Notes: a model not told the origin generated them from the sequence alone. A stretch of DNA of 64,000 nucleotides from an uncultured Candidatus Saccharibacteria bacterium (GCA_964417855.1 CAYQJB010000001.1:294709-358708); one strand, 5' to 3'; counted from the stretch's first letter, positions 8,045 through 57,085 are shown. Made by a program: numbers and translations.

Positions 8045-8893
8045 AAAAATCGCTCAACTTCAAGAAACGACGAACTCAGCATTCCTGAAATTTGAAAATT
8101 AAATTCTGTACCAGTTTTAGTGGATAACATTCATGTAGTTTAGGCCATGTGGCCGATGCTACCTGATACGTATTCTGTTTGGTCTTTTCAATACTGGAGA
8201 CAGAGCTCCATGAAGTACTACTTTAAGGGTAATGCTGCATGGGGTCGTTATCGTACTTACTCTCAAGGAGTATGATAACAAAACAGGTAACAAACAAAAG
8301 TGATTGTGGTCTTTTTATTTCCTAATAGGAAATATAAGGGCGTATGGTGGATGCCTTGACACAACATAGCGATGAAGGACGCAGCATGGCGGCGATACGC
8401 TTCGGGGAGGTGCCTAGCAACCTTTGATCCGGAGATTTCCGAATGGGGAAACCCAAGAGACTTGATCTCTTATCTTACTTTTAAGTAAGGTGCGCACCCA
8501 GTGAAGTAAAACATTCTAGTAACTGGAGGAAAAGAAAACAAGTACGTAAGTACACAATTTCGTAAATAGCGGCGAGCGAAAACGAAATAGCCCAAACCAG
8601 ACTTCCACATTGGGGATGACATTTTATCGGTTCTTTAATTTATTAGGGAACTATCATTATGCTGTCTCCTATGTGGCAGTCTGGGGTTGTAAGATAATAA
8701 TAGGATATTTATATCCAAAGAGTTACAAAATTTTTTGTTAACAGAACGCGTTGGGAAGCGCGACCAAAGAGGGTGACAGTCCCGTATGTGAAAATAAAAA
8801 ATCTCTTCTTTATTACTCTTGAGTACCCCGAGACACGAGTGGCTCGGGGGAATCCAGCAGAACTAACTGCTAAGGCTAAATATATGTTGTGAT

Positions 8894-8930
<37 letters not shown>

Positions 8931-10356
8931 CAGTCCGATGAGGACAGTGAAATAGACCTGAAACCATATGCCTACAAGGAGTCAGAGCGGACGTATTTAT
9001 ACGATCCGTCATGGCGTGCCTATTGAAGAATGAGCCAACGAGTTAATATGTATTGCTCGGCTAAATCCGCGAGGATGGAGCCATAGGGAAACCGAGTATT
9101 AATAGTGCGTCCGTATTACATATTAGACCCGAAGCCAATGCGAGCTATCCCTGGTCAGGCTGAACTTTGTCGAAAGACAAAGGGAGGGCCGAACCCGTAT
9201 GTCGTTCAACTCATTGGGATGAACTGGGGATAGAAGTGAAAAGCTAATCGAGCTTGGTAATAGCTGGTTCTCTCCGAAATAGCTTTTGGGTTAGCGTCGT
9301 GTGTTCCTCTTGGGGGTAGAGCACTGGAAGGACTCGACAGGGAGAAATCTCGCGAGTCCTATCAAACTCCGAATACCAAGAACTAAAGCACGGCAGTTAG
9401 TCCGTGGGGGCTAAGCTCCACAGGACAAAAGGGAAACAGCCCTAGATCCATATTTAAGGTCCCTAAATCTATACTAAGTGCACTTAAGGTGGTGGAATTT
9501 CTGAGACAATGAGGAGGTTTGCTTAGAAGCAGCAATCCTTGAAAGATAGCGTAATAGCTCACTCATCGAGAGATTCTGCGCCGCAGATTCGCGGGGCTAA
9601 AGTATAGTACCGAAACTTGGGGTGTCCTACTGCTTCGGCGGTAGGGCGCGGTAGGAGAGTGTTCTTGTCTGCGATGAAGGGGAAGAGGTGACTCACCCTG
9701 GAGCGTCAAGAAGTAAGAATGTTGGCACAAGTAACCACAATCGGAGTGAAAAACTCCGACGCCGAAAGAACAAGGTTTCCTTCGCAATGATTGTCATCGA
9801 AGGGTTAGTCGGGCCTAAGGGGATGGTGAGAACCGAACCCGACGGACACATGGTTAATATTCCATGACTTCTGTATACAGTGATGAAATGACGGAGTGTA
9901 GTATGAACAGCGCATAATCGGATTTGTGTCCATGCTTTAAGGAAGTTCTCTAGGTAAGTCCGGAGAGCTGATTTTAATATCAATTCCAAATAGAGTGGAG
10001 ACGTTAGGGGTTCGCCTCTAAATAATTGTTCAAAGCACGCTTCCAAGAAAATTTTCTAAACTTATGTATGCGGAAACCGTACCGAAAACCGACACAGGTG
10101 TTCAGGTCGAGTAGACCAAGGCGAACGGGTGAGAGGTCTTCAAGGAACTCGGCAAAAAAGCAGCCGTAACTTCGGAATAAGGCTCGCCCTCCCTAAAAAG
10201 AGGGTTGCAACAAAAGTATCCCTGGCAACTGTTTATCAAAAACACAGCTCCCTGCGAACTCGTAAGAGTATGTATAGGGGGTGACACCTGACCGATGCCA
10301 GAAGGTTAAACGTTGAGGGTACTATCGCAAGGTAGTGCTGATTGATGTAAGCCCTG

Positions 10357-10391
<35 letters not shown>

Positions 10392-10752
10392 TCAGCATTT
10401 GTTTTTATTAATGAATGCTGAAGAACTAGGACTGTTCATAGATGTGTTGATAAATAATGAAGAACCAAAGAATGCAAAGGAAAATTAGAGCTGCCTGTTT
10501 CAGTAAAATGAAGCGTTCAGACTGACTATATGCTGGTAAATCTGTGTGTGAAAAACACTGTAGTATCTAACACTACTAAGTTATAAAATTCGAAAGAAAA
10601 TTATTTCAAGTAAAAATGTGATTAGTGCAGACGATCAGCAGGAAAGACTAAAAAGTAATTTTTAGAATCCTCAGAAACCAAACGTCAGACTAAATAGTAA
10701 TATTTAGAAGATAGAGTTCGATCTTTATAGCGATATAAAGTTAACATAAATT
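10392..10752 (+). other. group I-like intron (ORF-less) inserted in 23S between GGTCCTAAGGT and AGCGAAATTCC (E. coli ~1917 region)
   Basis: flanking exon sequence is contiguous in E. coli 23S; insert carries group I core-like elements (CAGCAGGAAAG, GTCAGACTAAATAG, AAGATAGAGTTCG); boundaries +/-1 nt. Confidence 0.6.
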
Positions 10753-11081
10753 AGCGAAATTCCTTGTCAGGTAAGTTCTGACGCGCACGAATGGTGTAAT
10801 GACTGGGGAACTGTCTCGAAGACCCGCCCGGTGAAAATGCAATGGAGGTGAAGATGCCTCCTACCTGCAGCTAGACGAAAAGACCCCAGAAGCTTCACTG
10901 CAACTTGATATTGATTGTATGTTTTTACTGCGTAGAATAGATGGGAGAGGTTGAGATCCTGATTTCGGTTAGGGTGGACTCGTCAGTGAAATACCATTCT
11001 TTAAAAATATACATTCTAACCTCGACGGAAAAAACGTCGAGAGACAGTATCTGGTGGGCAGTTTTAGTGGGGCGCTATCCT

Positions 11082-11445
11082 CGAGGGTTTAAATTAATTT
11101 TTGAATCCTCGAACTATGGCGCCTCCAGAGATTTGTCATCTCGAAACAAATAAAAAAGGGGGACTGTAATAAGTAATTATTATTAGAAAAGTTAGTTATA
11201 TGCTGGAAAATCTGTGTCTTCAATGACTTAGAATGCAAGCTACCTATTAATTTAGGTAACAATGTTTGCATGCAGACTATCAGCAGGAAAGATTTCTATC
11301 ACAAAAAGTAAAATTGATGTAATAGAGAAATCCTCAGAGACTATACGCTAACCGTCCAGTAAAATGGATGATGATATAGTCCGATCTTTATAGCGATATA
11401 AAGCTTACTGAAAAGTAAGGCTTAGTAAAATAAGTAACATAAATG
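11082..11445 (+). other. second group I-like intron (ORF-less) in 23S just 3' of the P-loop (GGGGCGCTATCCT|...|CCTAAAAAGTAACGGAGG)
   Basis: 5' exon ends in U and insert ends in G (omega-G-like); R-like TCAGAGACTATACG and S-like GATATAGTCCG elements; 3' half homologous to first intron (shared GATCTTTATAGCGATATAAAG and ...AACATAAAT end). Confidence 0.6.
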
Positions 11446-11831
11446 CCTAAAAAGTAACGGAGGAGTCTATTAAGGTCAGCTAGGCGCGAATGGAAACCGT
11501 GCCGATAGTGCAATGGCATAAGCTGGCTTGACTGTGAGGCGTAAGTGCCAAACAGACGCGAAAGCGGAGCATAGTGAACCGAGGGTCCGCATTAGATGCG
11601 GCCAAAGATTATCTGACAAAAGCTACTCTGGGGATAACAGGCTGGTTGTGCCTAAGCGTCCATAGCGACGGCACAGTTCGGCACCTCGATGTCGGCTCGA
11701 CTTATCCTGGGGGTGAAGAAGCTCCCAAGGGTATGGCTGTTCGCCATTTAAAAAGTCACGCGAGCTGGGTTCAGACCGTCGTAAGACAGGTTGGTCTCCT
11801 ATCTGCTGCAGGCGTTGATACTTGAGAGGAA

Positions 11832-11862
<31 letters not shown>

Positions 11863-12178
11863 TGATCTCTGGTGTACCAGTTGTCTTGCCAAAGGCATCG
11901 CTGGGTAGCTATATCGGGAATGGATAAGCTCTGAAAGCATCTAAGAGCGAAGCCAACCTCAAGATAAGGTATCGTTTGAGATCCGTGAGAGATTATCACG
12001 TTGATAGGCACTAAGTATAAGCATAGTAATATGTTCAGCTGAGGTGTACTAATAAATCGATTCTTATTAGGAAATATGAAGATTCACGATCACTTTTGTT
12101 TGTGACCTAAATTACAAAATAATAATTCTGCAAGTTTTATTATAGAACCATGAAAAGACCTTTAAATTGACCGTTTCG

Positions 12179-12290
12179 TTCTGGTGACTCGTCGGAGGGG
12201 CCACACCTGATCTCATTCCGAACTCAGAAGTTAAGACCTCCAGAGGCGATGATACTCACTTGTTGGGGAAAGTAGCTCGTCGCCAGAACA
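12179..12290 (+). rRNA. rrf: 5S ribosomal RNA
   Basis: TTCTGGTGAC...CCACACCTGATCTCATTCCGAACTCAGAAGTTAAG...GTCGCCAGAACA with pairing termini. Confidence 0.85.
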
Positions 12291-18179: not shown

Positions 18180-18367
18180 TACGACCACGCCACTGATGAT
18201 TTTCACAAATCATTTGATTAAATCGCAGGGGGCCGTCCTAGGAATCTCCCAGGAATATTGAGTTAGGTAAAACTAATAAAATATTTCAGGCATTTCTAAA
18301 GACATCTTTGACAACTAAATGACAACCAACAAACGTCCTTTTTTTTGTTCTGTTTGAGTTTAATTTT

Positions 18368-19840
<1,473 letters not shown>

Positions 19841-20359: not shown

Positions 20360-21925
20360 ATGTATATGAAAAGCAAAACAGAGTTAAAAGTCAAAGTATC
20401 TACTAATCCTAAGGTAACAGAAAGTAATAAAAATTTGGGATTCTTTATTAAACAACTTCGAGAGGATAGAAATCTAACTCAAACAGATTTTGCTAAGCTT
20501 TTGAAAACATCACAAAGTGCGGTAGCTAGGATTGAGAATGGGGGACAGAACATGACAACAGAAGAATTGAATAGAATAAGTATTGCTCTTGGAAGAAAAA
20601 TTATGACTATTTCAGATTCTATTGATGTAGAAATTAATGGGGGAAGAAAACTTTCTGGAACTATCGCAACGAATACATCTAAAAATGGGGCGCTTGGTCT
20701 TATTTGTGCATCACTTTTAAATAAAGGAAAAACTCGTCTGCATGGAATACCTCGTATTGAAGAGGTTCAAAGAATTATAGAATTAATGGAAAGTATTGGT
20801 ATTTCAATAAAATGGATTGAAAAAAATACTTTGGAAATTATTGTTCCAAAAAAGTTAAAAACGGAGAATATGGATAAGGTCGCAGCAGGAAGAATTAGAT
20901 CCGGCTTGATGATGATTGGCCCAATGATCCATCTAGAAAGTATATTTAAAATACCTCACTCAGGAGGTTGTAAAATGGGTCAAAGGACAATCTCTGCTCA
21001 TAGATATGGTCTAGAAGATTTGGGTGTAAAAATTGATACAAAAGAGGATCATTATCTAATTCAATCAAAAAAACTAGCGCCCGCTCATATTATAATGTCA
21101 GAGTCTTCCGATACTGCGGCCGAGAATTTATTAATGGCGGCAGCCCTAATAAAAGGGAAGACTACAATTCAGTTTGCACCACCAAACTATCAGGTTCAGG
21201 AAGTATGTTTCTTTCTGGAAACCTTGGGTGTGAAAATTGAGGGCGTTGGTTCAACCACGTTAATCGTTCATGGAATTGATGAAATTAATATGGATGTTGA
21301 TTATTATAATAGTGAAGATCCAACAGAATCTATGATGTTCATTACAGCAGGTATTGTAACTGGATCTACTCTGACTATAACGAGATGTCCAATTGATTTT
21401 CTAGCCCTGGAAATGTTTAAGTTAAAAAAGATGGGATTGAAGTATAAGCAGACATCTGTTTATTATGCTGTGAATGGTAGAACAAAATTAGTTGATATTA
21501 CTATTTACCCATCAAAACTAGTTGCTCCACTTGATAAAATTTCAGCCCAACCATATCCTGGAATTAATACTGATAACCTGCCATTCTTTGTGCCAATTGC
21601 TGTGTTGGCTAAGGGGACAACTTTGATTCATGATTGGATGTGGGAGAATAGAGCAATTTATTTTACAGAGTTAAATAGGCTTGGGGCCAATATCAACCTG
21701 GCGGATCCTCACAGAGTTTTTATTCAAGGGCCCACAGAATTGAAGGCTGCACAAATTGTTTGCCCTTTAGCACTACGCCCTGCAATGATTATTATGGTTG
21801 CCATGCTTGGAGCAAAAGGAAAATCTATTCTTAGAAACATTTACCCAATAAGCAGGGGGTATGAGGATATTGCTGAACGATTGAATGGAATAGGGGCGGA
21901 CATTAAGGTGATAAAGGAGATATAG
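20360..21925 (+). CDS. murA: XRE-family helix-turn-helix domain fused to UDP-N-acetylglucosamine 1-carboxyvinyltransferase (MurA)
   Basis: residues ~25-80 are a Cro/C1-type HTH (LTQTDFAKLLKTSQSAVARIENG); remainder matches MurA incl. TSKNGALGLI N-terminus and active-site loop HSGGCKMGQRTISAH (catalytic Cys). Confidence 0.85.
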   Translation: MYMKSKTELKVKVSTNPKVTESNKNLGFFIKQLREDRNLTQTDFAKLLKTSQSAVARIENGGQNMTTEELNRISIALGRKIMTISDSIDVEINGGRKLSGTIATNTSKNGALGLICASLLNKGKTRLHGIPRIEEVQRIIELMESIGISIKWIEKNTLEIIVPKKLKTENMDKVAAGRIRSGLMMIGPMIHLESIFKIPHSGGCKMGQRTISAHRYGLEDLGVKIDTKEDHYLIQSKKLAPAHIIMSESSDTAAENLLMAAALIKGKTTIQFAPPNYQVQEVCFFLETLGVKIEGVGSTTLIVHGIDEINMDVDYYNSEDPTESMMFITAGIVTGSTLTITRCPIDFLALEMFKLKKMGLKYKQTSVYYAVNGRTKLVDITIYPSKLVAPLDKISAQPYPGINTDNLPFFVPIAVLAKGTTLIHDWMWENRAIYFTELNRLGANINLADPHRVFIQGPTELKAAQIVCPLALRPAMIIMVAMLGAKGKSILRNIYPISRGYEDIAERLNGIGADIKVIKEI

Positions 21926-45508: not shown

Positions 45509-46018
45509 ATGAAAATATTTATAGCAGCTGATCATGCAGGATATGAGTTAAAAAAAGCATTAATAGAAGATATAACTTTTTCAGGAGCTACCGTTATCGA
45601 TTGTGGGGCAACAGACTACAATGAAAATGATGATTATCCGTTAATAATTCAAATTGCAGCACAAGCTGTTTCAGAAGCTGAGAGCGCAAGACTTGCAGGA
45701 GGTGCAGAGTATACGGATGGGGAAGTTAGAGGAATTGTTATTGGGGGATCAGGTCAAGGAGAAGCGATTGTTGCGAACAAATTTCCACATATTAGAACTA
45801 CGGTTTATTATGGAGGAGTTCAGGAAATAATCACACTTTCTCGTGAGCATAATGATTCAAATGTTTTGTCACTTGGGGCTAGATTTATTTCAGAGAATGA
45901 GGCTATAATGGCAGTAAGGCTTTGGTTGGGAACACAGTTTAGTCAAGAAGATAGGCATGTAAGAAGAATAGATCAAATAGAAGAGATTGAAGGTAGAGTT
46001 AAGGATACGCTATATTAA
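45509..46018 (+). CDS. rpiB: ribose-5-phosphate isomerase B (RpiB/LacAB family)
   Basis: MKIFIAADHAGYELK N-terminus. Confidence 0.85.
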   Translation: MKIFIAADHAGYELKKALIEDITFSGATVIDCGATDYNENDDYPLIIQIAAQAVSEAESARLAGGAEYTDGEVRGIVIGGSGQGEAIVANKFPHIRTTVYYGGVQEIITLSREHNDSNVLSLGARFISENEAIMAVRLWLGTQFSQEDRHVRRIDQIEEIEGRVKDTLY

Positions 46019-46108: not shown

Positions 46109-46861
46109 ATGTCAAAGTCAAAAACAGAAATCATACCCGCAATAATGGCAACTTCATATGAGGATTTAACGTTCAAAGTTTCATATATGAATGGCATTGC
46201 TAAATTCGTGCAAATTGATGCAATGGACGGCAAATTCACTGAAGGTAAGTCATGGCCTTATATAAAATCTGAAGATAGAGATTTTGTTAAAATTATAAAA
46301 CAGGAAGAAGGTCTACCAGGATGGCAAGACGTTGATTTTGAAATTGACCTAATGATACGTGATGTTGAAAACGAAGCTTCAAAGTGGATTGCTGCTGGCG
46401 CAACAAGACTTGTAATACATTATAAGAGTGAGCCTGAAGAGATTATAAAGAGGGTTGTGAGAGATTGTAAAGACAAGGGGGTGGAGGTTATTCTGGATTT
46501 TGAACTAGATATGAGTGCTGAAGAGATTATAAAGATCTTACATAATTTTATGGATGATGTTGATGCAGGTGGAACAACTCCAGCTGAGGACGGTATTAAA
46601 CTTGATGGTGTGCAAATAATGGGAATCGATAAGATTGGAGTTCAGGGAGAAAAATTTGATCATAAAGTAATGGATTACATTAGAGAAATTCACAAAGAAT
46701 TTCCAGATTTAATTATTTCTGTCGATGGAGGTGTAAAACCAGAATACGCAAAACCTTTGGCTGACATTGGTGTTTCAAGATTGGTTGTTGGCTCTGCTAT
46801 TTTTAGCGATGATTCACCAAGAGATGCCTACGAGCACTTTAGATCCGTTTTGGATTTCTAG
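46109..46861 (+). CDS. ribulose-phosphate 3-epimerase-like TIM-barrel protein (divergent)
   Basis: IDAMDGKF and C-terminal VDGGV...VVGSAIF resemble Rpe; an insertion in the middle. Confidence 0.7.
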   Translation: MSKSKTEIIPAIMATSYEDLTFKVSYMNGIAKFVQIDAMDGKFTEGKSWPYIKSEDRDFVKIIKQEEGLPGWQDVDFEIDLMIRDVENEASKWIAAGATRLVIHYKSEPEEIIKRVVRDCKDKGVEVILDFELDMSAEEIIKILHNFMDDVDAGGTTPAEDGIKLDGVQIMGIDKIGVQGEKFDHKVMDYIREIHKEFPDLIISVDGGVKPEYAKPLADIGVSRLVVGSAIFSDDSPRDAYEHFRSVLDF

Positions 46862-46883: not shown

Positions 46884-49800
46884 TTGTACTGTGTTATAAT
46901 TCACAGCATGAAAAAGTTTTTTTTATTGTTTCTTACATTAATTATATTAAGTATATCGGCCCACATTTCTGTTTTTGCTCAAACAAAGCTTGACCCAAAA
47001 ATATATGATAAATACGGATTCAGACTTGATCAAAAACTACATAAACCAGCAACCTCTACACCGTCAATTTTATCAATAGCATCTTCGACTTTACTAAAAG
47101 CAACTTCTACCTTAGTAAAGCCTGACGTGCCACCAGTTGATTTGTCGGCTTTTAAACAAGGAGAAGCTGCTTCATGTTTTGATTACTATACCTTTGGAAG
47201 TATAGCTGTAAACCTTTCAACAGATGCATCTACATATAGTCCTGGAGATGTGGTTATCTTACGTGGTGAAATTAAGAATAATAATAAATATCCAATTACT
47301 AATTTGACTGTAAGAGCTAGATTAGTAAAAGATATTCCAAATCCAGATTATCTAAGATCGGAAATTATCACGTTACAAGATTTTAATATCGTAGAAAATA
47401 TAACACTAGATGCTGGTAAAAGTTTTGCTGTTAATTACTCACATTTATTGCCGTTGAACTCACCAAAAGGCGAGTATAAGTTGCTATTTTATGCATATAA
47501 TAATGACCGATTTGAGCAATCAGGTTTATCGTTTTCAAATATTTCTACAGCACAAAGCTTGAGATTTAAGGTTGTCGGCAATAATCCTCAGCAGGTATAT
47601 TTGGACCAAACAAAGATTACTGTCAACGACATGGATTATAATGTGATAGGACCAATACCAGAAATAGCCAAAAGTAATTCGGCAAACATTTCAATACCAC
47701 TAGTGAATCCAACAGGTAAGGATGAAAAAATGACAATTACATACTCTTTGTATAAATGGGATGACTTGCTTGATAAAAACAAAGTAGACTCAAAAGTGGA
47801 AAATATTACCGTCTCAGCAAACAGCAAGGTTAATTTGTTGTACAAGGTGGTCAAGACGGATATGCCTATTTATTACTTAAATATCAAATCAGATAAAGCA
47901 AATGCAAATAATGATTTAAACAAAAAAAGTAAAACCGTTTTTGATATTCAAACAGAGTCGAACGTACGATTTGCGGTTGCAGGCTATGACTATCCGAGAA
48001 TAAATTCATTTGGCGTTAACACATATCCAATAGTTGCTGGACAGGATATATCATTGTTTACCTGTTATAATAATGCAGCAAAAAAAGATACACAAAGTAA
48101 TGTGAATATCAGCACAATTTTATATGATGACAAGAATAATATTATCTCTAAAACTCAGTACGATGGAAAGATTAATGGAAGTATCAGTGCAATCTTTAAT
48201 AGGTTTAAAAGTAAGAGAGATATTGTAAATTTCAAGGCTGAAGTAGTGATTACTGATAGTGCTGGAAATATTATTGATAAAATAGAAAATAATTACAATT
48301 GTAAGGACATTAATCCCAAGATATGTCCAGCTGAAATTAATAACAATTCAGCTTGGATTATTTTGTTTTTTCTAATTTTGATTGTATTCATGATTATAAT
48401 TTTTTATGTAAAAATTAAAAGTAATAAAAGAAAGTCGGTAAATTTAATATCGATGATTTTTACTATAATCTTCACAATTATTCCAAGCTTGATGTTTGCG
48501 CATACATCAGAGGCTGCGACCCGAAGGGCATCGTTGGATTTTTACATGGATAGTTCAGCAAATGGTGCCCCAGATTCTATTGGATTGGTAGAAAAAGAAT
48601 TTAATTTTAATAAATCTGGAATCAATCTAAGTGATGTAGACTTGAATGTTCTAAATGTTGGTGAATCTATCGATGCATCCTCGCCATCAGCTGTTGGATC
48701 GTGGTATTTTAAAGGTTACCCATTGGACCATACTAATATGGATGGCAGTAAATATATGTCGAGTGATACCTATGATTTTTCAACAACTTATGTCGATTTT
48801 TCAATGGGGACGCCTATTGAAGTAGGTGATACAAATATTAGTTCAGATAATCCTAGTGTAGTATCTTGTATATCAAACAAATGTACGGCGGTAGGACCTG
48901 GTACAGCAAATATTAATGTATCCTTTGCTGATAAAGAGAATGAAACTTCAAATGATATTAAAACATGTGATGTGTTCGATTTTACTTACAAGCGCTGGAA
49001 GGGTGATTATTTGACTCCAGGACGATCCTATGGATATGGCTTAGCACCTAACTGTGTACCTGGTAGGCTTGCCAATGCAGGAATGGATACAAGTTTTGTC
49101 CGTAGTCATTTTATACCGTATTACGATAGTATGGACGAAGCGCTATTTCCTACTTATGCATATTCTTATTTTGATAATATTCGTTTTTTCCCAGGTCCTA
49201 GTAAGGGCTTTGGTATTGTTAATACACTGCTTCATATATATGTAGATCATACGGATTTTGCAGACCCAGATTCGGGTTCATCAGATTGGAGTATTGGTGC
49301 TGCTCAGGCATTTTCTTTTGATCCAATTAAATATGCAATAACTGTTCCATCAACTATAAACGCAACACAGACATCTGCCTGTACTGGCGTAACAAATATC
49401 TCTCAGTCTTCTGCAACTGTGAATTGGTCCTACGTAGATCCTGAGGGCGACCCTCAAACAAATTTTCAGGTACAAATATCAGTAGATTCCACCTTTGCTG
49501 ATTCAAGTATTGTTAATTCAGTTGCAGCATCAGCAAACACAGACGCGTCATCTGTCAGGTCAGTATCAATACAAGGTCTTACTTCTAATACTACATACTT
49601 TTGCAGAGTAAGGACACTTAATACTGCAAATGGATGGAGTGAGTATAATAATTGTTCCAATAGTTTTATTACAACTGGAAATAACATTTCAGCTCCAACC
49701 ATCTCAGGCCCACACGATGTCTCCCTTGGGGTGCCAGCAACATACACAGCTTCATCCAGCTTGGCTGCTGTTACAAAAAAAGAAAATGATTCATTCTTTG

Positions 49801-50678
49801 CATCAGTATTTTTTGCTCTTAAAAAAGTTTTTGCACAAACATCCACAGAAACTAAGTTAGTATATCAATTTGATTGGAATAATGATGGTATAATAGACTA
49901 TTCTAGTGATCCTGTGTTACCTGGTGTTGAGGTACAAGCCTCAAATACTTGGAATACAAAAGGAGACTTCATCTTCAAAGCAAGAGCTACCGAACCAGTA
50001 AGTGGAGTTTCTTCAGATTGGGTGAGCTTTAATATAAATGTCAGCGATAAACCTAAAGTACAAGCATTATTCTATTGTGTTTCCCCAAACCTATCTTGGG
50101 GTGCTGTTCCAAATGCTATAAGTTATGATTTTGAAGTGAAAAATAAAACAGATTTAACCTCTGTACACAAAACTATAACAGGTCTAACTGTAGATATTTC
50201 TCAGTATCTAAATAATACAAATATCTCGTTTGGTGTTAGAGCAATATATTCTGGAAATCTTAAGGGAGATCAAACCTGGGTAAATAATATTACGCCAACT
50301 TGTCCTAAGTTGGGTGATAGTTTGAACATAAAGAGCGGTATGATATTTGGATCAAATCCGCCATGGGCAAATGAAACAACTAAAAAATGTGCATATTTTG
50401 GACAAATAGATCCTACTATTGTTATGTCAGATGAAAAAACCTACACAGGAATTGTTGTAAAAGCATGCTCAATTGATGGAATAAGTGTGTCTTTGTCTAA
50501 TACAGTAAATGGGGGAAAGGGGTTTGAGAATATACCAAAAAATGTTGGGAATCATATATTGTCCTGTAATTTAGATTATGATAATGGAATAGATGCTAAT
50601 GGTGCTGTTATAAGATCTAATGCAACGACTGTATTAAGTGCTAAGTGTTCAAACTTGGCAAACACTGTGGAGAAATAA
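46884..50678 (+). CDS. giant surface protein: signal peptide, ~460-aa extracellular region, TM hairpin (possible internal signal peptide), Fn3-like domain
   Basis: 1264-aa ORF; two hydrophobic segments at ~490-545 with AHTSEA signal-peptidase-like site; Fn3-like segment SATVNWSYVDPEGDPQTNFQVQIS...TYFCRVR. Confidence 0.75.
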   Translation: MYCVIIHSMKKFFLLFLTLIILSISAHISVFAQTKLDPKIYDKYGFRLDQKLHKPATSTPSILSIASSTLLKATSTLVKPDVPPVDLSAFKQGEAASCFDYYTFGSIAVNLSTDASTYSPGDVVILRGEIKNNNKYPITNLTVRARLVKDIPNPDYLRSEIITLQDFNIVENITLDAGKSFAVNYSHLLPLNSPKGEYKLLFYAYNNDRFEQSGLSFSNISTAQSLRFKVVGNNPQQVYLDQTKITVNDMDYNVIGPIPEIAKSNSANISIPLVNPTGKDEKMTITYSLYKWDDLLDKNKVDSKVENITVSANSKVNLLYKVVKTDMPIYYLNIKSDKANANNDLNKKSKTVFDIQTESNVRFAVAGYDYPRINSFGVNTYPIVAGQDISLFTCYNNAAKKDTQSNVNISTILYDDKNNIISKTQYDGKINGSISAIFNRFKSKRDIVNFKAEVVITDSAGNIIDKIENNYNCKDINPKICPAEINNNSAWIILFFLILIVFMIIIFYVKIKSNKRKSVNLISMIFTIIFTIIPSLMFAHTSEAATRRASLDFYMDSSANGAPDSIGLVEKEFNFNKSGINLSDVDLNVLNVGESIDASSPSAVGSWYFKGYPLDHTNMDGSKYMSSDTYDFSTTYVDFSMGTPIEVGDTNISSDNPSVVSCISNKCTAVGPGTANINVSFADKENETSNDIKTCDVFDFTYKRWKGDYLTPGRSYGYGLAPNCVPGRLANAGMDTSFVRSHFIPYYDSMDEALFPTYAYSYFDNIRFFPGPSKGFGIVNTLLHIYVDHTDFADPDSGSSDWSIGAAQAFSFDPIKYAITVPSTINATQTSACTGVTNISQSSATVNWSYVDPEGDPQTNFQVQISVDSTFADSSIVNSVAASANTDASSVRSVSIQGLTSNTTYFCRVRTLNTANGWSEYNNCSNSFITTGNNISAPTISGPHDVSLGVPATYTASSSLAAVTKKENDSFFASVFFALKKVFAQTSTETKLVYQFDWNNDGIIDYSSDPVLPGVEVQASNTWNTKGDFIFKARATEPVSGVSSDWVSFNINVSDKPKVQALFYCVSPNLSWGAVPNAISYDFEVKNKTDLTSVHKTITGLTVDISQYLNNTNISFGVRAIYSGNLKGDQTWVNNITPTCPKLGDSLNIKSGMIFGSNPPWANETTKKCAYFGQIDPTIVMSDEKTYTGIVVKACSIDGISVSLSNTVNGGKGFENIPKNVGNHILSCNLDYDNGIDANGAVIRSNATTVLSAKCSNLANTVEK

Positions 50679-50713
50679 AACTGGTCTGCTATATTTTGAT
50701 GTATAATGTATGT

Positions 50714-51574
50714 ATGTCATTATCTAATGATCAAATCTCTTTAATAAAAACAAAAGCCAAAGAAATTAGAATCGGAGTTATAGAGATGTTGGCTGAAGCA
50801 AAATCCGGTCATTCTGCTGGCGCCCTTGGTATGGCTGATATATTTTCTACACTATATTTTAGCTTGCTTAAAAAAGAAGACCGTCTTGTTTTATCAAATG
50901 GCCATATTTGCCCCGTCCTATATTCGTCAATGGCCTCAGCTGGAATAATTGATAAAGCAGAATTGAAAACCTTAAGAAAATTTGGAAGTATTTTACAAGG
51001 TCATCCTCATAGGGAATTTCTACCATCACTGCAAACAAGCTCAGGGCCACTTGGCTCAGGACTTTCACAGGCTGTTGGGATGGCGATCGCTGATAAAATT
51101 GATGATAGTAATTATGAAAAACTACCTAAGAGATTTGTCTATTGCATGATGTCCGATGGGGAACTAGACGAAGGACAAAGCTGGGAGGCGGTAATGCTTG
51201 GGGCAAAGGAAAAACTCGTAAATCTAATTGCAATTGTCGATAGGAATAATATTCAAATCGGAGGAAGTACAGAAGAAGTAATGCCATTATCGCCCACAGG
51301 CGCATCTCTATTTGATAAATGGAAATCTTTTAACTGGTATGTTCAAGAGATTGACGGGCATGACATACAAGCAATAAATGACGCTGTAATAAAGGCACAA
51401 ACAAACCTTGTTAGACCGTCTGTGATAATTGCACACACTATTCCTGGAAAGGGAGTGAGTTTTATGGAGAATAGATTTGAGTGGCATGGAATTCCGCCCG
51501 GAATTCAAAATGTAGATGGAGCTCCTAAAAAAGAAAAACAAATTGAAGTTGCATTGCAAGAACTTTCTATATAG
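50714..51574 (+). CDS. transketolase, N-terminal (ThDP-binding) subunit
   Basis: GHSAGALGMADIF and GPLGSGLSQAVGMA ThDP motifs; ORF track start 50645, ATG 50714 preferred. Confidence 0.9.
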   Translation: MSLSNDQISLIKTKAKEIRIGVIEMLAEAKSGHSAGALGMADIFSTLYFSLLKKEDRLVLSNGHICPVLYSSMASAGIIDKAELKTLRKFGSILQGHPHREFLPSLQTSSGPLGSGLSQAVGMAIADKIDDSNYEKLPKRFVYCMMSDGELDEGQSWEAVMLGAKEKLVNLIAIVDRNNIQIGGSTEEVMPLSPTGASLFDKWKSFNWYVQEIDGHDIQAINDAVIKAQTNLVRPSVIIAHTIPGKGVSFMENRFEWHGIPPGIQNVDGAPKKEKQIEVALQELSI

Positions 51575-51592
51575 TGTTATAATTTAAATATT

Positions 51593-51847
51593 ATGTCAAT
51601 TGAATTTGATGAACAAGGTGGGGAATCTAGCAAAAACAGCAGACTGTTGTATGCAAAGTTTCAAAAAACTATTCAACCCCCTGCAATAATATTATTTTTG
51701 ATTAGAAAGCATATTGTAAAAGATGAGAAAAGGGCAAGGATATTGCTGTTAGTGCTAGTTTTATTAATATTTTTTATAAGTGCATATTTGTTTATTAAAG
51801 GGTTAGGCGGTCCTGTTTTTATTGATAGGGTTAATAAGTATAAATAA
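51593..51847 (+). CDS. small single-pass membrane protein, paralog A
   Basis: 84 aa; shares LYAKFQK..PPxI..FL..IVK...AR...PVFIDR with the next ORF. Confidence 0.5.
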   Translation: MSIEFDEQGGESSKNSRLLYAKFQKTIQPPAIILFLIRKHIVKDEKRARILLLVLVLLIFFISAYLFIKGLGGPVFIDRVNKYK

Positions 51848-51875
51848 ACATCATAAAACATTGCAATAACTTTCT

Positions 51876-52139
51876 GTGAGGTGGTATAATTATATTATTA
51901 TGAAATTAGAAAAAAGTAAGCACAAAAAAGAGTCTGGTGGAAAATTTTTATATGCAAAACTGCAGAAAAGTTCTACACCCCCATCAATCGTAGTTTTTCT
52001 GGTTAAAAATCAAATTGTTAAAACAGAAGCGTCCGCAAGAAGATTGTGGCTTTTTTTGATAATAGTCATTTTTTTAATAAGCTTTGCCTTGATTATCAAG
52101 TGTGTTAATAATCCAGTTTTTATTGATAGAATAAAATAA
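51876..52139 (+). CDS. small single-pass membrane protein, paralog B
   Basis: 87 aa; tandem duplicate of 51593-51847. Confidence 0.5.
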   Translation: MRWYNYIIMKLEKSKHKKESGGKFLYAKLQKSSTPPSIVVFLVKNQIVKTEASARRLWLFLIIVIFLISFALIIKCVNNPVFIDRIK

Positions 52140-52143
52140 TATT

Positions 52144-53631
52144 ATGTTTAAATTTTACACTAAAAATAGTACTCAAAAAATTAGTAAAAACAGAGCATTT
52201 ACGCTTATCGAGCTTCTTGTTGTGATGGCAATAATTTCATTGCTCTCTTCTCTTGTTCTGAATAGCTTAGCAAGCGCTAGGATGAAAGCTAATGATACAA
52301 AAATTACTGAGGACTTAAGACAATTTAAGATTGCTGCAGAGCTTTACTATAATGATAATCATACATACCCAAGTGGGTATACTCCTGGAGCATCCAAAGG
52401 ACAGGATCTAGCTTATGTCGATAAAAATGAGAGTTGGTCAAAAAAATTATCATTCTTCGTAAAGACAGCTGAGGCATCTGGTCCAGTTCATACTTCACAG
52501 TTATGTTTGAATTTTGATGCTATGGCACAGTCCATGGTCGCTGGAAAATATCTTTCAGCAGTTCCAGTTCATCCATATGACGACGATTCTACGGGAAAAG
52601 GGGTTTGTTATAAGGCTATAAAGAATGATAAGACTTTTGTTTCTTACGCACCTTTGACTACAAGAATTGCTGTCACAAACGGTAGTATAAATAAAAATAC
52701 GGGTTTTATTTTGGGTGATACGAGTATTAGTGCAGTTAACGATGTTAATGTAGCTATAAAATCTACTAAAAAAGGTAATAAAATAGACACGGAAAGACCT
52801 GCTTTTGTTGCTGCTGATGGAGTAAATCCTGTAGCTGATCTTACTATGTCCCAAGATGCAGTAGACGGTTTTACAACAGGGGCACCAGCTGTAACCGGGG
52901 GTGTAGTGGGCAGTATATTTGATATTTTTACCCCCTCCTCACCAACACCAACACCAACTTGTGCTGACGGAGAAGCCATTAATACATTGGGTGTTTGTCA
53001 GGCCTTGTATACTGGTTTTCTTAGAATGAATTGTGTTGCCCCTGCGAATCAAGATCCATTTAGCTCTGGGTGTATTGGGGAAAATCCTACTGCAATAACT
53101 GCAACAAACACAATAACAGGTGGAACTCTTATAATGAATCTGTTTACAGGTATTCGTATAAATTCGGCAACATGTCCAATTGGTACGCGTCAGGACCTAT
53201 ATAGTGATTCATGCGTAGCTAGCATCACTATAGGAGCTATAGGAGGAGGTATAGGAGGTATAGGAGGTATTTGTGGTGGTGGTATGCAGCTATCTAATGG
53301 TGTTTGTAAAATAGGACATTCAGGTTGTGACGCTCAAGGAAATGGACCTTGTGGACCAACGACATTTTCCTATTCCTGTCCAGCGGGTATGACTTTTGAT
53401 ATAAATGGACTAGAGAATACAGCTAATGGGACTTGCTCTACCATTCCAGTTGGGGATTGTGGTATGGGCTCTACATTGCAGTCAAATGGTGTGTGTGTGT
53501 CCAACGGAAGTGCATGTCTTCCTCCTGGTGTCGCTGGTTCATGTCCAGGCGTTGGATCTGTCACTTGTCCCTCAGGTAAGACGTTTCTAATTAATGGTCT
53601 AGAATATACAGTTAATGGTACCTGTCAGTAG
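52144..53631 (+). CDS. large type IV pilin-like protein (prepilin N-terminal methylation motif) with Cys-rich C-terminal repeats
   Basis: FTLIELLVVMAIISLL class III signal (Ala at -1, Glu+5); repeated CP[AS]G[MK]TF.INGLE.T.NGTC modules. Confidence 0.8.
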   Translation: MFKFYTKNSTQKISKNRAFTLIELLVVMAIISLLSSLVLNSLASARMKANDTKITEDLRQFKIAAELYYNDNHTYPSGYTPGASKGQDLAYVDKNESWSKKLSFFVKTAEASGPVHTSQLCLNFDAMAQSMVAGKYLSAVPVHPYDDDSTGKGVCYKAIKNDKTFVSYAPLTTRIAVTNGSINKNTGFILGDTSISAVNDVNVAIKSTKKGNKIDTERPAFVAADGVNPVADLTMSQDAVDGFTTGAPAVTGGVVGSIFDIFTPSSPTPTPTCADGEAINTLGVCQALYTGFLRMNCVAPANQDPFSSGCIGENPTAITATNTITGGTLIMNLFTGIRINSATCPIGTRQDLYSDSCVASITIGAIGGGIGGIGGICGGGMQLSNGVCKIGHSGCDAQGNGPCGPTTFSYSCPAGMTFDINGLENTANGTCSTIPVGDCGMGSTLQSNGVCVSNGSACLPPGVAGSCPGVGSVTCPSGKTFLINGLEYTVNGTCQ

Positions 53632-53697
53632 CCATTTTATAAATAGTTGGACTTCCTTGCTATATAGACAAAAAATGGAGGGTTTTATGAAATAATA

Positions 53698-54768
53698 ATG
53701 CTAAACTCCAACATAAAACTAAATCAAAAACTCTTTGCTGCGGATGTAGAAAAAACTGCTACCCGCAAAGGTTTTGGTGAAGGCCTTTTGCTTGCTGGAA
53801 AGTATGATGAAAAAATCGTAGCACTTTCTGCAGATCTAACAGAGTCAACTCAAGTTCATTTATTCAAAAACGCCTTTCCTAACAGATTTATCGAAGTAGG
53901 TGTTGCTGAACAAAATTTAGCGAGTGTCGCATCAGGACTGGCCGCCTCCGGAAAAATCCCTGTTATTGCATCCTATGCAATATTCAATCCTGGAAGAAAC
54001 TGGGAACAGATTAGAACCACAATTTGTTACAACAACAGAAAGGTTGTTGTTGCAGGTTCACACGCTGGATTATCAGCTGGGAAGGATGGTGGTTCGCATC
54101 AAGCGCTTGAGGACATTGCGCTTGCACGAGTTATACCAAACATGACTGTAATATCTCCATGTGACGCCGTAGAGGCTAGAAAGGCAATAATAGCAGCCAT
54201 TTCACCATCGCAAATAACTCCAGTATATTTAAGATTAGCTAGAGAAAATACACCAATAATAACAACTGATGAAACTCCTTTTGTAATAGGGAAAGCACAA
54301 ATAGTTTGGGGTGATCATGTTGATTGCGATGCACCTGCAGGTATTGCACCTTCAGCTTCTGGTTCAGGGACTTCCACGGTTCCACCAACGGGATCCGCAC
54401 TGTGCGATATCGGAATAATAGCAACAGGCCCTATTTTATACAATGCAATTTTGGCTGCTAAACAGTTAAGTAATTTAAAAATACGTGTCAAAGTTTTGAA
54501 TCTGGCAACAATTAAACCAATTGATGAGGAGGCAATAGTGTCGCTTGCTAGGCAGTCTAATGGGAAAATTCTAACAGTTGAAGAGCATCAAATTAGTGGG
54601 GGAATGGGAAGCGCTGTAGCTGAGGTTCTTGCAAGAAAATATCCATCTAAGATGGCTTTTATTGGAGTGAACGATAGATTTGGCCAGTCCGGCACAACTG
54701 AAGAATTATACAAAGAATACGGTTTGACCGTTGATGATATTGTAGAGAAGGCAAAGGGGTTGGTCTAA
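53698..54768 (+). CDS. transketolase, C-terminal (pyrimidine-binding + C-terminal domain) subunit, with Ser/Gly/Pro-rich insert
   Basis: FGEGLLLAGKYDEKIVALSADLTEST and GSHAGLSAGKDGGSHQ motifs. Confidence 0.9.
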   Translation: MLNSNIKLNQKLFAADVEKTATRKGFGEGLLLAGKYDEKIVALSADLTESTQVHLFKNAFPNRFIEVGVAEQNLASVASGLAASGKIPVIASYAIFNPGRNWEQIRTTICYNNRKVVVAGSHAGLSAGKDGGSHQALEDIALARVIPNMTVISPCDAVEARKAIIAAISPSQITPVYLRLARENTPIITTDETPFVIGKAQIVWGDHVDCDAPAGIAPSASGSGTSTVPPTGSALCDIGIIATGPILYNAILAAKQLSNLKIRVKVLNLATIKPIDEEAIVSLARQSNGKILTVEEHQISGGMGSAVAEVLARKYPSKMAFIGVNDRFGQSGTTEELYKEYGLTVDDIVEKAKGLV

Positions 54769-56246: not shown

Positions 56247-56390
56247 TCCTTAATTATACAACAGTGCTAATAATATGTTAATCATAATGTGCTCGCGAGA
56301 GATATCCAAATTCTGGTGCCTACTGGTATCTCTAAGACAAGAAAAACCTCCGGAACGCTTGCGCGCCCGGAGGTCGTTGAGACTTGGATT

Positions 56391-56951
56391 TTACCGATTC
56401 CTGCGTCTCAGCAGAAAAAGGCTTGATGTGATGACCGCGAGTCCAAGCACTGAAGGCTCGGGGATGTAGGTCACGGTCCCAATGGACGTGATCAAACCTT
56501 GCCCTTGGACATCGTAGGTCATTTTGGCTTGCCAAACGTCGCCGGGGGAGAGAAAAGAGTCTATCGCAACACGGGTCCCTAGATCAACCAAGGTCCCACC
56601 TTGATTCATTTGGCCTGTTGCATAAGCATTACCTGTGGTAGTGCCTATACGAGACCAAGACGAACCCAATACGAATGTCGTATACTCTTCGCTTGTAACT
56701 GAAAGTCCGTTGATTGTTATATCCATCGTTACTGAATTCAATGTAATTGACAATCCGGTATTTGAGATTGTATAAGACAGAAAAATTTGTCCCGGACTCG
56801 TTGTGACGTCAATATGACTTGGTGTTACGGCGCTGTACGCGTCGTCAATGCTGATAGCTGTTAAGCTAACACCAGTGGATGCAGTCAGGGCTGCAGTGGA
56901 AACGTTCACAACTACGCTGAACGCTACAATGAGTATGCTAAGCAGTTTCAT
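56391..56951 (-). CDS. PEP-CTERM sorting-signal protein (secreted, Thr/Ser-rich)
   Basis: signal peptide MKLLSILIVAFSVVVNVSTAA; C-terminal IPEPSVLGLAVITSSLFLLRRRNR = PEP motif + TM + Arg cluster; ~50% GC versus ~35% background. Confidence 0.7.
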   Translation of the reverse strand: MKLLSILIVAFSVVVNVSTAALTASTGVSLTAISIDDAYSAVTPSHIDVTTSPGQIFLSYTISNTGLSITLNSVTMDITINGLSVTSEEYTTFVLGSSWSRIGTTTGNAYATGQMNQGGTLVDLGTRVAIDSFLSPGDVWQAKMTYDVQGQGLITSIGTVTYIPEPSVLGLAVITSSLFLLRRRNR

Positions 56952-57085
56952 GGTTCTTTTTTTTGGAGTTGGAGTTTTTCTCTGTCCCACATCTGTGAAA
57001 AAGAGATGAAAAGGACTTGTCCGTCGAAGACGTCAAAGTTCTATTACCTAAATATCGTACTATGCTTTAAAGAAACTGTCAATAT

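Follow-up and report, generated by a model that had tools for sequence, protein, structure and literature searches.

The 64,000-nucleotide (nt) stretch of DNA analysed here (the window) derives from an uncultured Candidatus Saccharibacteria bacterium (GCA_964417855.1 CAYQJB010000001.1:294709-358708) and carries the genes tktN and tktC for the two halves of a split transketolase. The halves are separated by 2.1 kilobases (kb) that code for two small membrane proteins of one family (sm1 and sm2) and for a large type IV pilin (Table 1). The arrangement as a whole is probably explained by an old, vertically inherited cassette in the split-transketolase locus, that is, by variation in gene order, with no functional coupling evidenced. 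It is a variation on things already known: split transketolase, patescibacterial pilins and a fluid gene order.

For the comparison of gene order, TktN was used as the query and 80 species-representative loci were collected, 70 of them with both transketolase halves. A scan of metagenomes with TktC gave 68 loci that served as an independent census of the gap; the relatives in this set were at most 61% identical and included no members of the window's clade. Compared loci are designated by L-numbers (e.g. L007, L090). The clade of the window was defined by identities of at least 85% for GAPDH and at least 74% for TktN, and loci with a TktN identity of 66% or less were taken as outgroups. The window belongs to the ultra-small bacteria of the Patescibacteria (candidate phyla radiation), and its nearest named relatives are metagenome-assembled genomes of Paceibacterota/Parcubacteria.

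The interruption is shared within the clade: an sm gene separates the halves in at least four related species, not always together with the pilin. The gene order is tktN-sm-pilin-tktC in L007 (TktN 85% identical to that of the window), tktN-pilin-sm-tktC in L090 (74%) and tktN-sm-tktC in L100 (86%), where the pilin is missing and tktC starts 5 nt past sm. In L087 the order is prf (release factor)-sm-pilin-tktC; tktN is not nearby, and a pilin-sm pair lies downstream as in the window. The order in L088 (5744-10956) is rpiB-rpe-sm-pilin followed by the genes for an XFP phosphoketolase and an acetate kinase (ackA), with no transketolase at the locus, which looks like the replacement of one enzyme for pentose-phosphate breakdown by another with the pilin cassette retained. 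L008-L011 and L095 have rpe-tktN-ftsE-ftsX and lack tktC over a distance of up to 10 kb, and the two halves appear to stand at different loci in some sibling species. In the outgroup Patescibacteria the usual order is rpiB-rpe-tktN-tktC with abutting halves, and the entry of the cassette is therefore placed at the base of the window's clade. The simplest reading of these orders is an ancestor of the clade that would have had tktN-sm-pilin-tktC, with changes in individual lines afterwards, in which sm was duplicated (the window's species), the order was swapped, the pilin was lost, the locus was broken or the enzyme was replaced. As one of two readings, the earlier note on this DNA had proposed that a pilus cassette was inserted in the transketolase operon; relative to the outgroups this stands, as an old event at the level of the clade, and what falls is the notion of a recent or foreign insertion. 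The comparison of synteny proposed there gave mostly adjacent halves in the outgroups, but the interruption is common to L007, L090 and L100, essentially the outcome that the same note had called ancestral.

The composition of the cassette is native. The z-scores of G+C content at third codon positions (GC3), calculated against the genes of the window, were -0.27 for sm1, -0.46 for sm2 and -0.73 for the 495-amino-acid (aa) pilin, all within one standard deviation, and the codon chi-square per degree of freedom was ordinary for the three genes (0.8-1.5). The low total G+C content of the sm genes sits in codon positions 1 and 2, and hence in the amino-acid composition. No direct or inverted repeats were found flanking the cassette, and no integrase or transposase gene was found in the interval from 46 to 58 kb. 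The compositional signal that had been suggested as a check on the inserted segment was thus absent, and the native composition, together with the lack of flanking repeats and of a recombinase gene, speaks against a mobile element or genomic island.

Both halves appear to be functional. TktN and TktC tile the full-length transketolase model NF004559 (positions 13-272 and 315-623, respectively). The best match of TktN in the PDB was 6YAK, the N chain of the Carboxydothermus split transketolase (E = 3e-61, residues 6-269), and the best match of TktC was 6YAJ, the C chain of that enzyme (E = 2e-73). The segment SDGELDEG...DRNNIQI of TktN is aligned to GDGEIQEG...DYNGLQI of 6YAK; the motif for binding of the metal and thiamine diphosphate (ThDP) reads SDG...NN in place of GDG...NN, and since SDG is found in 77 of the 84 relatives, the variant is not taken as a defect of TktN. 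The catalytic motifs AEQN (Glu) and GGSHQ (His) are invariant in the alignment of TktC with its relatives (alignment A5). As judged from the sequence, TktN and TktC are two chains of one split transketolase, for which activity is predicted. Pseudogenization was considered and rejected: both genes are intact, their motifs are kept, and the identities to orthologues are 74-86% for TktN and 73-80% for TktC.

The loop in the TktC linker that joins the Pyr domain to the C-terminal domain divides the HMMER alignment with 6YAJ in two. It is variable in both length and sequence when the window, L007, L087 and L012 are compared, L090 has a short version, and L016 and L025 lack it; it is therefore regarded as a fast-evolving surface loop. 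Besides the linker loop, the TktC of L087 (7044-8189) has a second low-complexity insert, SGSDVSGAGDKRETGSGIKGGVKMG, which exceeds the corresponding stretch of the window's protein by about 23 residues. The clade tolerates such low-complexity inserts in an essential enzyme.

The arrangement is not an artefact of assembly. An identical TktC was found in the same arrangement on contigs of six independent assemblies (NCBI, ENA, JGI, Logan), one of which is GCA_037127815.1 (contig JBAXXP010000001.1), and the order matches wherever the contig reaches far enough; because of this recurrence an assembly chimera was ruled out. The intergenic gaps from tktN to tktC are 18, 52, 4 and 66 nt, the second being 28 nt if the listed start of sm2 (51876) is used; the ATG at 51900 is likelier to be its true start and gives a protein of 79 aa. 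The basic description given in the earlier note was borne out: separate tktN and tktC genes (by Pfam, NF004559 and 6YAK/6YAJ), a real Ser/Gly/Pro-rich insert in the C-terminal half, lying within residues 203-236, and 2.1 kb between the halves with two tandem membrane-protein paralogues and a 495-aa pilin, all on the plus strand.

Interrupted pairs are common. In other Patescibacteria loci the halves were adjacent in 97 of 138 cases and interrupted by 0.2-2.5 kb of unrelated genes in 41 (about 30%). Among the 70 species loci with both halves, the gap was at most 160 bp in 47 and measured 0.2-1.5 kb, with other genes inside, in 23; the 68 metagenome loci comprised 50 adjacent and 18 interrupted pairs (0.26-2.5 kb), and one of these gaps, that of L150, holds a pilin. 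The gaps of the 23 interrupted species loci contain mostly small membrane proteins; a toxin-antitoxin pair, a dehydrogenase gene beside a transposase-like one, and pilins (L007, L085) were also found. The statement that the halves are normally adjacent holds accordingly for about 70% of the loci and fails in the 41 others, and non-adjacency in archaea was already in the literature (PMC7661550).

Table 1. Coordinates (window numbering) and supporting evidence for the features of the transketolase locus and its surroundings
Feature	Position	Strand	Evidence and remarks
gatB, gapdh, gene for a 102-aa protein	5' of rpiB, in this order	+	
rpiB, ribose-5-phosphate isomerase B	45509-46018	+	PF02502, E = 4e-35; heads the pentose-phosphate cluster
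rpe, ribulose-phosphate 3-epimerase	46109-46861	+	PF00834, E = 6.9e-19
1256-aa membrane/surface protein with fn3 domain	46908-50678	+	fn3 PF00041, E = 3e-7; 1256 aa also in the L001 call
tktN, ThDP-binding PP-domain chain, 286 aa	50714-51574	+	PF00456 Transketolase_N, E = 2e-51
Promoter-like element of sm1, TTGCAA-18-TATAAT with upstream TG	51554-51583	+	10/12 consensus matches and extended -10
sm1, 84-aa bitopic membrane protein	51593-51847	+	family alignments A3, A4, A7
Promoter-like element of sm2	51861-51890	+	10/12 matches and extended -10; aligns with the upstream region of sm1
sm2, 79 aa	51900-52139	+	tandem paralogue of sm1, 47% identical; 79 aa in the L001 call
Type IV pilin, 495 aa	52144-53631	+	PF07963, 1.9e-7; TIGR02532, 5.4e-7
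Spacer between pilin gene and tktC, 66 nt	53632-53697	+	GGAGG 16 nt 5' of the tktC ATG
tktC, Pyr and C-terminal domain chain, 356 aa	53698-54768	+	PF02779 Transket_pyr, 7e-39; PF02780 Transketolase_C, 8.7e-24
Low-complexity loop with the Ser/Gly/Pro-rich stretch, TktC residues 203-236, Pyr/C-domain linker	54304-54405	+	
Second pilin, 197 aa	57086-57679	-	PF07963, E = 2e-8; canonical G/FTLIELL, Gly at -1
sm3, 124 aa	57693-58067	-	31% identical to sm1; orthologues P0002-P0020

The sm proteins form a family of their own. A profile search returned 1965 cluster representatives at 50% identity, and the 150 best matches listed were all 62-136 aa long. The family is without a match in Pfam, NCBIfam or the PDB (best E value to a solved structure, 0.29). 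Its consensus begins with a short, acidic N-terminus (IEFDDE); RFLYSKFQ...PP...FLIK.GIVKDE..A comes next, then a single membrane helix (predicted), and in many cases the protein ends in GPVFIDR. The structural model of sm1, of moderate confidence (predicted local distance difference test score, pLDDT, 67), has helices at residues 14-24 and 31-38 and a long helix at 45-72 that presumably spans the membrane; we infer that the conserved N-terminal part is cytoplasmic. In 14 of the 16 independent cassettes among the compared loci, a pilin gene begins between -23 and +21 nt from the stop codon of sm, and each of three distant family members that were examined separately has a pilin gene directly downstream, so that sm and pilin constitute a recurrent two-gene module. 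In the window itself, sm3 is immediately upstream of the 197-aa pilin, which starts 13 nt past the sm3 stop. The same sm-pilin family was found elsewhere between the genes for SecA and an AI-2E transporter, next to an extracytoplasmic function (ECF) sigma factor/DUF5667 and in a glycosyltransferase/FtsW context. The sm proteins may have a role in the handling of pilins.

The 495-aa pilin has a prepilin site KNRA/FTLIELL (KNRA/FTLIELLVVMAIISLL) (within 52144-52260) with the layout of a class III signal peptide: a short basic leader, Ala at -1, Phe at +1, Glu at +5 and then a hydrophobic stretch. Ala, not the canonical Gly, is found at this position in most of its family (KAFTLIELL; alignment A6). 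In about 45 orthologue clusters, residues 1 to about 250 are alike (45-58% identity), and the C-terminal regions, which are variable and rich in Cys and Gly, are wholly different. The AlphaFold model shows a long alpha1 helix (17-72) and a head domain with strands (157-191); as far as about residue 255 most pLDDT values exceed 85, past this point the model is poor, and the last 240 residues are not modelled with confidence. When the model was compared with Foldseek, the top matches were type IV pilins, and they were weak (best E values 0.03-0.06, low TM-scores). Two copies of a motif bracketed by Cys, CP.G(K/M)TF.ING.E.T.NGTC, lie in the C-terminal region (53350-53631, residues about 403-495), and about ten further members of the family end in the motif as well; it too is modelled without confidence. 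The 197-aa pilin is kept 3' of tktC in L007 and L087, and a partial match was found at the end of L090. No prepilin peptidase, assembly ATPase or platform protein was found among the genes of the window.

Signals for transcription were sought throughout the locus. The promoter-like element of sm1 overlaps the final codons of tktN, and that of sm2 appears from the alignment to have been duplicated along with its gene. A TGnTATAAT box stands 9 nt 5' of the ATG of both sm1 and sm2, and 7-10 nt 5' of the ATG in eight related sm genes (loci L007, L087, L088, L090, L091 and L100). Similarly, the box TGTATAAT lies 6 nt 5' of the tktN ATG, and the box TGTTATAAT ends 7 nt 5' of the ATG of the gene for the 1256-aa protein. 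Counted over the window, a TGnTATAAT or TATAAT box was found 4-14 nt 5' of the start codon in 24 of 60 open reading frames (ORFs), against 5.7% at random positions, which suggests that leaderless or near-leaderless transcripts are common in this lineage. Many genes of the window have the box 6-12 nt 5' of the ATG and are without a Shine-Dalgarno sequence (examples at 50700-50713, 51575-51592, 51882-51899 and 46892-46907, and at 56247-56260 on the minus strand).

The spacer in front of tktC contained no promoter-like or terminator-like site, and its folding did not differ from that of shuffled sequences (z = -0.14). No terminator-like site was found in any of the four gaps from tktN to tktC, and an Rfam search of the region detected no regulatory RNA. 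As neither a promoter-like site nor a terminator was found 5' of tktC, read-through into this gene is plausible. For the other reading of the earlier note, co-transcription of central metabolism with a surface appendage, the lack of terminators stands beside the conserved promoter-like boxes 5' of tktN, sm1 and sm2; the locus is probably transcribed as several nested units, and tktC by read-through from upstream.

Taken as an old cassette, the locus would have arisen and would work as follows. The gapdh-rpiB-rpe-tkt cluster for sugar phosphates, in a Patescibacteria genome of Paceibacteria-like type, would encode a functional transketolase of the alpha2-beta2 type. A self-contained cassette of sm and a large type IV pilin would have come between tktN and tktC in the ancestor that the species of a small clade have in common, and would then have been inherited vertically and remodelled, with sm duplicated here and with the order swapped, the pilin lost or the locus broken in relatives. 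Transcription of the cassette would start at its own extended -10 promoter, close to the ATG, and the mRNA would be leaderless or nearly so; tktC would most likely depend on read-through from the promoters of the cassette and of tktN. TktN and TktC would assemble after translation, as those of the Carboxydothermus enzyme do in vitro, and adjacency of the genes would therefore not be required. The tktN-tktC junction, like other co-directional housekeeping junctions in this type of genome, would often accept small surface or accessory genes. On the best reading, the neighbourhood of pilus and pentose-phosphate genes is then inherited gene order and not evidence of coupling.

Several points weigh against an old, passively inherited cassette. 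It stays by pentose-phosphate genes when a phosphoketolase stands in place of the transketolase (L088) or when tktN is elsewhere (L087), a persistence that could reflect selection rather than inertia. Pilins occupy the tktN-tktC gap outside the clade in L085 and L150, a weak hint that their placement is not random. The ancestral state was reconstructed by parsimony on about ten loci without a species tree, and the P0268 contexts, compared for tktN loci of the L008-L011 type, come from other assemblies than the tktC locus of L087. The promoter scan gave 55 sites against 53 expected in shuffled sequence, and the promoters are proposed from consensus matches and conservation only.

Some of these points bear on functional coupling, in which the pilin cassette and the pentose-phosphate genes would be kept together by co-regulation, with tktC wired to the promoter of the cassette; for example, a pilus for the uptake of DNA or nucleosides, or for attachment to a host, would be expressed together with enzymes that metabolize salvaged ribose. 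Such coupling is improbable. The linkage does survive rearrangements, including those in which sm-pilin follows rpe (L088) or lies 5' of tktC with no tktN (L087). In every clade member with tktC that was examined, this gene lies on the same strand and at most 70 nt downstream of sm or the pilin gene, and it has no terminator upstream. The gap pilins of the two further lineages compare with 0.38 expected from the flanking density, but at P of about 0.06 the enrichment is not significant, and over whole pentose-phosphate clusters there were 2 pilins against 3.0 expected, i.e. no enrichment. Moreover, the sm-pilin module occurs in the unrelated contexts given above, and an sm-less pilin between ftsE and ftsX; L100 keeps tktN-sm-tktC and yet has lost the pilin; the cassette has a promoter-like element of its own; and the window contains no genes for pilus machinery. 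A stronger form, in which sm is an unrecognized, dedicated partner of type IV pilins and tktC is placed on the sm/pilin promoter, so that pilus and pentose-phosphate pathway are co-regulated by design, is likewise thought unlikely; in such a case sm could possibly act as an adaptor in the membrane, to hold the cognate prepilin or to deliver it. The converse proposal, that sm is not a partner of the pilin but a membrane anchor or regulator of the transketolase or its cluster, the pilin being the sole true intruder, has very little probability. It draws on L100, where tktC closely follows sm in the absence of a pilin, and on the fact that, of all genes in the gap, sm is the one most regularly present across the clade. 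It is opposed by the pilin gene found downstream of sm in nearly all cassettes and in distant members far from any transketolase gene, by the pairing of sm3 with the 197-aa pilin on the opposite strand, and by the outgroup transketolase clusters, which have no sm between the halves. A recent horizontal acquisition, with a mobile or foreign segment of 2.1 kb newly landed between the halves, is just as hard to credit and has already been largely refuted. The adjacent halves of the outgroups, a sliding profile that shows sm1 and sm2 to be richer in AT than the genes around them, and the differing sites of the cassette family in related genomes would agree with it. The codon positions that account for the low G+C content of sm, the window-typical GC3 and codon usage, and the lack of flanking repeats, integrase and transposase do not; nor does an interruption common to species down to 74% TktN identity. 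In addition, sm1 and sm2 are merely 47% identical, and the duplication itself is therefore old.

The old-cassette explanation was also set against known systems. The chains of the split transketolase of Carboxydothermus hydrogenoformans, expressed separately, reconstitute an active enzyme in vitro (PMC7661550). As in that enzyme (6YAK, 6YAJ; PMC7661550), the N chain of the window's transketolase corresponds to the PP domain and the C chain to the Pyr and C-terminal domains. In contrast to C. hydrogenoformans, 2.1 kb with three unrelated genes separates tktN from tktC in the window, the first Gly of GDG is Ser, and TktC has a clade-variable linker loop that makes it about 29 residues longer in this region than 6YAJ. 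A passage of PMC7661550 (citing Soderberg 2005 and Brasen 2014) names non-adjacent split transketolase genes in archaea, e.g. Methanocaldococcus jannaschii. The half-genes of the window resemble those of M. jannaschii in not being neighbours, which indicates that adjacency is not needed for function; unlike the archaeal case, the separation here is bacterial, short, co-directional and conserved in the clade, and a pilin cassette lies in between. With the pilins of Patescibacteria/Saccharibacteria (PMC11623550), PilA1 of C. difficile and PilA4 of T. thermophilus, the 495-aa pilin shares the FTLIELL leader and, as far as its model shows, a long hydrophobic alpha1 helix and what may be a globular head; these pilins are its top fold matches, though weak ones (best E = 0.03), and it differs from them in its length, in the Cys/Gly-rich variable C-terminal region, in the prevalence of Ala at -1 in its family and in the dedicated small membrane protein upstream. 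A parallel was found in the genes of ftsE and ftsX, between which a co-directional 198-aa pilin gene is wedged in L010 (11687-12283) and L095 (4253-4849); there, as at the transketolase locus, the interrupted genes code for subunits of one complex, but the host pair is a different one and the pilin has no sm in front.

The rest of the cluster was compared in the same loci. Nearly all related loci show synteny of rpiB with rpe and tktN, and in relatives rpe runs directly into tktN or into sm. The gene for the 1256-aa protein, which has internal membrane segments, is not found between rpe and tktN in L008-L011, L090, L095 or L100, nor after rpe in L088; the cluster thus has a further insertion here, seen solely in this species. 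This insertion and the minus-strand sm3-pilin pair 2.3 kb downstream had been overlooked in the earlier note. An ORF of 199 aa on the minus strand (56391-56990) was the sole compositional outlier of 47 genes, its GC3 being 0.455 (mean of the genes 0.271, z = +4.1) and its codon chi-square per degree of freedom 3.46. Its C-terminus, IPEPSVLGLAVITSSLFLLRRRNR, resembles a PEP-CTERM sorting signal, and the ORF has no match in Pfam or NCBIfam. GCA_037127815.1 has no call for it, and other assemblies give it a length of 186 aa; it may have been acquired recently.

Elsewhere in the window, the 23S rRNA gene (region 8321-12288) is 3753 nt long, compared with the 2925 positions of the model, and has a group I intron at 11132-11403; the 5S gene comes next. 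The 16S gene (18361-19840) is unlinked from it, lying 6 kb downstream past FtsW, SecD, SecF and other genes. A protein of 521 aa (20360-21925) combines an N-terminal HTH_3 domain (Cro/C1-type) with a domain of the EPSP-synthase/MurA type, an unusual fusion.

The finding on the transketolase itself is a minor one, as the split form and non-adjacent halves are known and interruption is common in Patescibacteria; programs that call pathways should nevertheless not demand adjacency of the halves. Widespread leaderless transcription would affect the inference of operons in this lineage. The one new lead is the sm family, which by its gene neighbourhoods appears to be a near-obligate upstream neighbour of pilin genes. 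Since type IV pili have a central place in the episymbiotic way of life of these bacteria, an unannotated, pilin-specific partner would be worth testing.

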